A DNA stretch of 64,000 bases, from NCBI GenBank assembly GCA_964016885.1, contig OZ024754.1, positions 31,062,001 through 31,126,000 of the forward strand, read 5' to 3'. The notes under the pieces were generated by a model. It was not told where the DNA came from. It saw nothing but the letters and a program-made list of their open reading frames with translations, and did no database searches. Positions 25,427 to 25,726 of this stretch are shown here, in pieces (the first letter of the stretch is position 1; the number at the start of each line of letters is the position of its first letter). Position numbers and translations under genes: made by a program. This DNA comes from Eledone cirrhosa (lineage: Eukaryota).

Positions 25427-25726
25427 CAATGATATTAAATAAATGGAAACTATATTTATTAAACCATATTTATTCTATTATATATATTTCAAGGGTACCA
25501 AAAAACTTTGGTACGCTTTCATTAGATACAATACAAAGAGTGTTTTATAAATTTTGACAAATTCAACTGATAAGGTATGATTTCCTTGGCTATGTCAAAA
25601 TTTATAAAACACTCTTTGTATTATATCTGATGAAAGTGTACCAAAGTTTTTTTGGTACCCTTGAAATATATATAATAGAATAAATATGGTTTTATAAATA
25701 TAGTTTCCATTTATTTAATATCATTG
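25427..25726. repeat. Fold-back element (~133-bp arms, 33-bp spacer), family HB
   Basis: 25427-25559 versus 25593-25726; homologous to 42755-43140. Confidence 0.94.
25619..25682 (+). ncRNA. Type I hammerhead ribozyme (candidate)
   Basis: UAUUAUAU-CUGAUGA-AAG.GUACCAAAG(uuu)UUUGGUAC.CUU-GAAA-UAUAUA-UA|AUAGAAUA. Confidence 0.68.

Follow-up and report, generated by a model that had tools for sequence, protein, structure and literature searches.

The element at 25427–25726 of the window (i.e., of the whole 64,000-nucleotide stretch of DNA that was analyzed), referred to as copy 1 below, is a head-to-head palindrome, the ends of which coincide exactly with the coordinates that the first-pass annotation had given for a hammerhead ribozyme copy. 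Alignment of the arms and the hairpin fold delimit two inverted arms, both reading outward, the left one at 25427–25559 (minus strand, 133 nt) and the right one at 25593–25726 (plus strand, 134 nt), with 5 of 134 columns differing between them, and a 33-nt spacer (25560–25592, minus strand), which, judging by run depth, belongs to the left arm and continues its family sequence upstream, present there because the 5′ cut points of the two arms differ. The right arm directly abuts a TA-rich microsatellite (25727–25751), and the left one continues into a one-sided tail of about 92 nt (25335–25426, minus strand), which depth, loose ends and homologous tails in copies 2 and 3 (see below) mark as repeat-family sequence and which stops at a (TA)16 tract (25303–25334 in the tandem-repeat listing), the likely target of the insertion. 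This listing (185 rows for the window, which is microsatellite-rich and ranges from 29 to 48% in GC content) holds no tandem array over copy 1, the arms being inverted and not arranged head-to-tail. Folded as a whole, copy 1 forms a single hairpin of −184.7 kcal/mol (about −16 for one arm alone), and its read-through transcript would be expected to collapse into one 133-bp hairpin, which would hide the hammerhead folds of both arms. Directly to the left of copy 1, at 25141–25277, lies a more diverged palindrome that ends in (CT)n(TA)n and in each arm of which GAAAY is found 17–18 nt away from the centre.

Among the other features of the window is a near-intact LINE at 34757–39054, consisting of a 429-aa frame with a weak Myb/SANT match and a 1045-aa frame with an AP endonuclease and a reverse transcriptase (RT), the best match of the latter being from Argonauta hians (62% identity), and followed by (TA)46 at 39147. 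This match makes an octopod host likely. Weak zf-RVT matches in the minus-strand frames at 19136–19792 and 21470–22390 are likely the remains of another LINE. Two repeat families are probably SINE-like, namely, one of approximately 370 nt that has many copies with 93–95% identity (7464–7837, 14434–14807, 34393–34853, 43421–43887 and 62022–62385) and one of approximately 190 nt (at 15029, 40350, 40550, 41251, 46873, 47734, 63003 and 63402).

The right arm of copy 1 carries a minimal type I hammerhead motif (25619–25682, plus strand; based on pairing tests and folding), the core of which is intact and one stem I pair of which is broken: stem I is formed by 25619–25626 and 25675–25682, the CUGAUGA core (CTGATGA in the DNA) occupies 25627–25633, stem II 25634–25662, GAAA 25663–25666 and a self-complementary helix III 25666–25673, with cleavage predicted to take place after A25674 (the hammerhead position numbers used here, i.e., G5, A9 and G10.1–C11.1, follow the papers cited below and ordinary usage). 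In the left arm, arm comparison and family variants point to a second hammerhead motif (25471–25533, minus strand), where one stem I pair is broken as well and a G5A change at 25523 makes the core read CUAAUGA, which falls outside the CUGANGA pattern; this motif is predicted to be inactive by analogy with an engineered hammerhead, the cleavage of which was abolished by G5A (available portions of PMC4027429). The complete CUGANGA...GAAA...UH core is found in the right arm of copy 1 (25627–25674), in both arms of copy 2 and in the family majority.

Copies 2 and 3 are the other family members in the window. Copy 2 (42724–43139) comprises a palindrome at 42756–43139 and a tail of about 32 nt (42724–42755) and has an intact-core hammerhead in each arm, at 43039 (plus strand) and 42856 (minus strand), whereas copy 3 (51966–52234), a third, more diverged member without CUGAUGA, comprises a palindrome at 51966–52141 that is centred, or cut, inside stem II and a long right-side tail to about 52234, homologous to the tail of copy 1 (score of 54, with 1000 shuffles reaching no more than 45). 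All three elements are head-to-head, with variable 5′ cut points, a tail on one side only (about 32 nt in copy 2, about 92 nt in the other two) and (TA)n at both outer ends. The sequence GAAATATATATAAT, located at 25663–25676 in copy 1, has six matches in the window at no more than one mismatch (0.24 expected), each of them inside one of these three elements.

Each of the four arms of copies 1 and 2 forms 11 pairs in stem II and 7–8 of the 8 in stem I and contains the 8-nt self-complementary AUAUAUAU as a palindromic helix III, through which dimers are predicted to form, and an unpaired C opposite C in stem II is common to three of the four. The unpaired nucleotide after A9 and the G10.1–C11.1 pair are present in copy 2; copy 1 has A-U there and pairs in either register. 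A combined test of stems I and II was passed by 4/4 arms and by 0/119 unrelated metagenome loci that match this core motif, and the hammerhead anatomy of the four arms is not a product of chance. Compared with shuffled sequences, the folding of the copy 1 arms gave z-scores of −3.26 (right) and −4.78, and that of the copy 2 arms +1.28 and +0.26, so only the former are more stable than shuffles, and the copy 2 result, like the Rfam one that follows, speaks against the hammerhead reading. An Rfam search of the whole window returned no hammerhead match at the gathering threshold, nor was there a hammerhead among the 12 weak matches obtained at E ≤ 10 in 25380–25760; weak microRNA matches over copy 1 were rejected, as they merely mirror the palindrome.

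The first-pass annotation had compared copy 1 with 43031–43096 of copy 2 and described conserved motifs and a conserved downstream block, stem I G-U pairs that became A-U, and a stem II of different sequence that still pairs, all of which it attributed to selection on RNA structure and took as its best evidence for real ribozymes. The motifs are all in place (core columns identical, 7/7 and 12/12), the downstream block is present in both elements where it was said to lie, and two of the eight stem I pairs are, indeed, A-U/U-A in copy 1 and G-U/U-G in copy 2. Stem II does keep its pairing, with three pairs changed on both sides and still paired, one one-sided change and one pair broken in copy 2; however, 17 of its 28 aligned columns are identical, and the stem is, therefore, a diverged homologue rather than another sequence. 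When placed on the named hammerhead structure, the four arms pair in 94% of the cells (reached by 0/500 shuffles, with slid controls at 37–61%), and with the alternative stem II register in 92% (2/500 shuffles), although the shuffle counts overstate the case because the four rows represent only two independent elements. Random placement of the same nine substitutions in a simulation of the two elements gave equal pair retention at p = 0.007 or 0.032, depending on the register, and the co-location of the substitutions gave p = 0.015–0.024, in an evaluation made post hoc; with two independent sequences, covariation is below R-scape grade. Selection on RNA structure thus finds support for the family (compensatory pairs, p = 0.007–0.032 in the simulation, and family-wide variants that mostly retain pairing and spare the core), but not for copy 1 (G5A and the broken stem I pair), such selection having likely acted in the source RNA lineage and not on copy 1 itself, which is decaying after its insertion, as seen from the private G5A in its left arm and the broken stem I pair in both.

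A query made of one arm, the tail and the spacer (25337–25592) was compared, at 80% likeness, with four of nine listed public sequencing runs, and arm matches were found in 5019 of 16,285,364 contigs of X1 and 26,532 of 12,467,656 RAD reads of X7 (organism A), as well as in 45 of 8,254,286 records of X5 and 9 of 13,709,327 records of X6 (organisms B and C, respectively). The repeat is a high-copy family; its summed depth, which does not equal copy number, rises from about 10 at the strand-switch joint 25559/25592 to about 600–700 over the spacer, with the tail at 351,000 and the sequence behind the ribozyme at 2.9 million. The family majority has G5 (124,708 of 124,885 in depth in X1; 637/680 and 225/240 reads in X7) and, at the stem I position mismatched in both arms of copy 1, a U that makes for a full stem I, and the defects of copy 1 are, therefore, private. 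The sole core change among the 40 listed variant rows (of 62) is a return to G5, and 11 of the listed variants affect paired positions, of which seven keep or restore the pair on their own, two are compensated in copy 2 and two break the loop-closing pair, in a tally made from 18 of the 40 listed rows, with the variants unphased. Conservation by itself does not set the ribozyme apart, being equally high in the 45 nt that lie behind stem I.

Loose ends, as read by eye, show the copy 2 type of stem II in 5450 reads and, in 22 contigs (agreement of 0.79), a third stem II type, where one U-A pair seems to have become C-G. In organisms B and C, TA repeats are joined to the element at its short end as well as at its long one, with loose TA ends before 25338–25340. 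Molecule ends at 25351, 25362 and 25553 in X7 were rejected as biological ends, since they appeared, by eye, to be AATT sites of the RAD library. The family pattern matched none of the viral or metagenome contigs, and a looser core pattern yielded 119 metagenome loci, none of them a family member, which were used as the control; the best covariance-model score among the 100 of these 119 loci that were searched was 30 bits, vs. 90–94 bits for the training arms.

The reading that we favor, at a probability of roughly 80%, is that copy 1 represents a 5′-truncated non-coding insertion of the pseudo-LTR (pLTR) end of a Penelope-like element into (TA)n, with an outward minimal type I hammerhead in each arm of a repeat of approximately 135 nt. 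As no RT/GIY-YIG open reading frame (ORF) was found in the window, the Penelope link is one that we infer, and the element is filed not as a Penelope element proper but as a repeat with minimal hammerheads, likely of Penelope origin. A Pfam scan of short window frames (129 of the 213 complex ones) gave 0/129 matches, 16 longer chosen window frames held no GIY-YIG and no Penelope RT match, and the approximately 92-nt tail showed no coding signal (variants split 7/6/4 by codon position across 17 positions) and no Pfam match. As to the clade within Penelope, Neptune would be a better guess than Naiads.

Mechanistically, a master element elsewhere would supply the RT/GIY-YIG protein in trans, AT-rich DNA would be nicked, and reverse transcription would start within the RNA of the element, at a site behind the ribozyme, and halt shortly upstream of it, leaving the copy 5′-truncated; the inverted duplication might come about via fold-back self-priming or a second priming event, with differing start sites leaving a tail on one arm only. 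In the master RNA, the hammerhead would probably cleave only as a dimer joined by the 8-bp self-complementary helix III or with protein assistance, which may be the stage at which stems I and II were maintained by selection; since its insertion, copy 1 has drifted, and the read-through hairpin would conceal both ribozymes. Any target-site duplication is unreadable in the (TA)n flanks.

The paired changes between the copies might also have been produced at the DNA level, by hairpin repair or template switching in a fold-back-prone repeat, leaving the hammerhead as a relic or a mere resemblance, and the family, after all, plainly generates inverted repeats, conserves the 45 nt behind the ribozyme like the core, offers just two independent phased sequences and shows but a small, not significant, excess of G-U-making over A-C-making variants (5 vs. 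3, raw). We nonetheless consider this unlikely: repair toward a perfect hairpin would remove the C-C mismatch, yet both subfamilies keep it, and would leave no G-U pairs, the stem I strands are 50 nt apart with the core between them, the only core variant in the 40 listed rows goes back to G5, and both stems occur in none of the 119 control matches. The RNA-type G-U changes argue likewise against a MITE or a foldback DNA transposon whose termini are long inverted repeats and which, inserted at TA, contains a hammerhead-like motif by chance, as do the asymmetrical ends of the copies (a family-encoded tail on one arm only in 3/3 copies) and a centre that is the junction of two unequally truncated arms and not an internal segment; despite the long inverted arms, the TA flanks and a conservation that is highest near the outer ends and gives way to a variable centre, we find this explanation marginally less credible still.

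It could further be argued that the copy 1 locus is itself a ribozyme pair, the divergent central transcripts of which pair via helix III and cleave in trans, as the head-to-head layout, the self-complementary helix III, the intact core and stable stem II of the right arm (z of −3.26) and the bidirectional pLTR promoters proposed in the available portions of PMC3846280 would all allow. This is, however, very improbable, given that the left arm has its private G5A, the stem I pair kept by the family is broken in both arms, the post-insertion changes strike the ribozyme instead of sparing it, and the full transcript is one hairpin. Least believable is an assembly or library artefact, even if 19 local palindromes per 64 kb are many and X1 may be the assembly's own source sample, because the arms differ in 5 of 134 columns, an X1 contig spans the strand switch 25559/25592 (at that depth of about 10), and the tail and TA pattern is consistent.

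The 19 local palindromes in question, found by self-BLAST at sites within 12828–62987, make up 4347 of the 64,000 bases (6.8%) and were picked by eye from 23 distinct local matches, a microsatellite pair and far-apart arms being left out. An outward hammerhead 3′ half (GAAA, a self-complementary stretch and UH) is present in 8/19 and an inward one in 1/19, against a background mean of 0.6 that stems from single random arms and understates the two-arm chance; (TA)5 occurs at an end in 16/19 (background of 2.9), and GAAAY lies no more than 22 nt from the centre in 6/19 (background of 2.2, p = 0.024, post hoc). There is a hint that the inversion often happens in stem II. Most of the 19 have (TA)n on one side and other sequence continuing on the other. 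Outward hammerhead 3′ halves of other families were seen at 26370–26627, 53093–53198 and 62764–62987, and inverted pairs of the opposite layout, i.e., with inward hammerhead-like cores, at 16907–17405 (CTGATGA at 17378, minus strand) and 50721–50936 (CTAAAGA at 50756, plus strand, and 50901, minus strand); a lone CTGAAGA...GAAA with a stable inner hairpin at 63841–63880 failed a stricter stem I test.

Octopus is characterized in the available portions of PMC5625713 as exceptional for its near-perfect double-stranded RNA and hyper-editing and was excluded from the repeat analysis there, making the palindromes of the window a testable candidate source. A far broader proposal would be that the head-to-head ends of many hammerhead-bearing Penelope-like families constitute a genome-wide octopod “palindrome factory”, in which stem II often seeds the fold-back and which is the missing repeat source of octopus double-stranded RNA and A-to-I hyper-editing, a notion that we put forward as speculative and rather doubtful. 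An excess of A-to-G changes on the RNA strand, such as editing might leave behind as a scar, was looked for and not seen in X7 (11 vs. 14 places). The palindromes could feed octopus RNA hyper-editing, and the wider pattern matters more than the one family.

Minimal type I hammerheads sit in the pseudo-LTRs of Penelope-like elements of metazoans, mostly away from ORFs, and show low, dimer-dependent cleavage (available portions of PMC4209133), those of this kind cleaving weakly, as dimers or with protein help (parts of PMC4209133 and PMC11167929). The motifs described here resemble those of PMC4209133, as far as its main-text portions go, in type I topology, the CUGANGA/GAAA/UH core, a long helix II, space for one more nucleotide following A9 (evident in copy 2), a palindromic helix III, high within-genome variability, compensatory changes, opposite-strand pairs 100–700 bp apart and a mostly ORF-less setting, and differ from them in a stem I of 8 bp (4–5 bp there), an internal C-C mismatch in helix II and, in copy 1, A-U in place of G10.1–C11.1, which is typical, not absolute. 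No cephalopod family is named in those main-text portions, the supplementary alignments of which may list one, and a literature search for cephalopod hammerheads found no paper, the supplements of the cited papers possibly listing this very family.

Regarding the insertions, the available portions of the respective papers report pLTRs that are inverted head-to-head and may bear a 31-bp tail, an arrangement interpreted as self-priming (PMC3846280), a one-sided tail of 30–40 bp and a (TA)n bias that hides target-site duplications (PMC8557442), and RT start sites at internal positions, which determine the tail, together with AT-rich nicking and a protein-assisted hammerhead that is dispensable for in vitro insertion and at the cut site of which RNA-seq ends are absent (PMC11167929). 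The copies in the window share with these insertions the head-to-head inversion, unequal 5′ truncation, a tail at one end, an AT-rich/(TA)n target and an unreadable target-site duplication, but consist of two ends alone and are ORF-less; the approximately 92-nt tails of copies 1 and 3, moreover, exceed the published 30–40 nt, and the published tails lie in the ORF start, whereas those seen here show no coding signal. Naiads have the same TA bias, but no canonical hammerheads. For Octopus vulgaris, recent activity of Penelope-like families has been annotated (PMC13282606; also PMC8967140, each in its available portions), the main text of the former making, in those portions, no mention of ribozymes or palindromes.

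Non-LTR retrozymes of animals (see also PMC7229834) are, in the available portions of bioRxiv 10.64898/2026.07.22.740005, repeats that are similarly short, non-coding and equipped with type I hammerheads and for which a pLTR origin has been argued, yet theirs are arranged in head-to-tail tandem and those of the window in inverted pairs. The palindromic Harbinger repeat of Xenopus, as presented in part of PMC5625713, is likewise short and self-folding, giving near-perfect double-stranded RNA, but is a DNA transposon with a palindromic consensus, whereas the palindrome here likely arises anew with each insertion. The elements of the window thus add a probably cephalopod family to a known and widespread class of minimal-hammerhead repeats, both the class and the inverted layout of which have already been published, and provide a large natural set of variants on which minimal hammerheads that carry a C-C mismatch in stem II can be tested.
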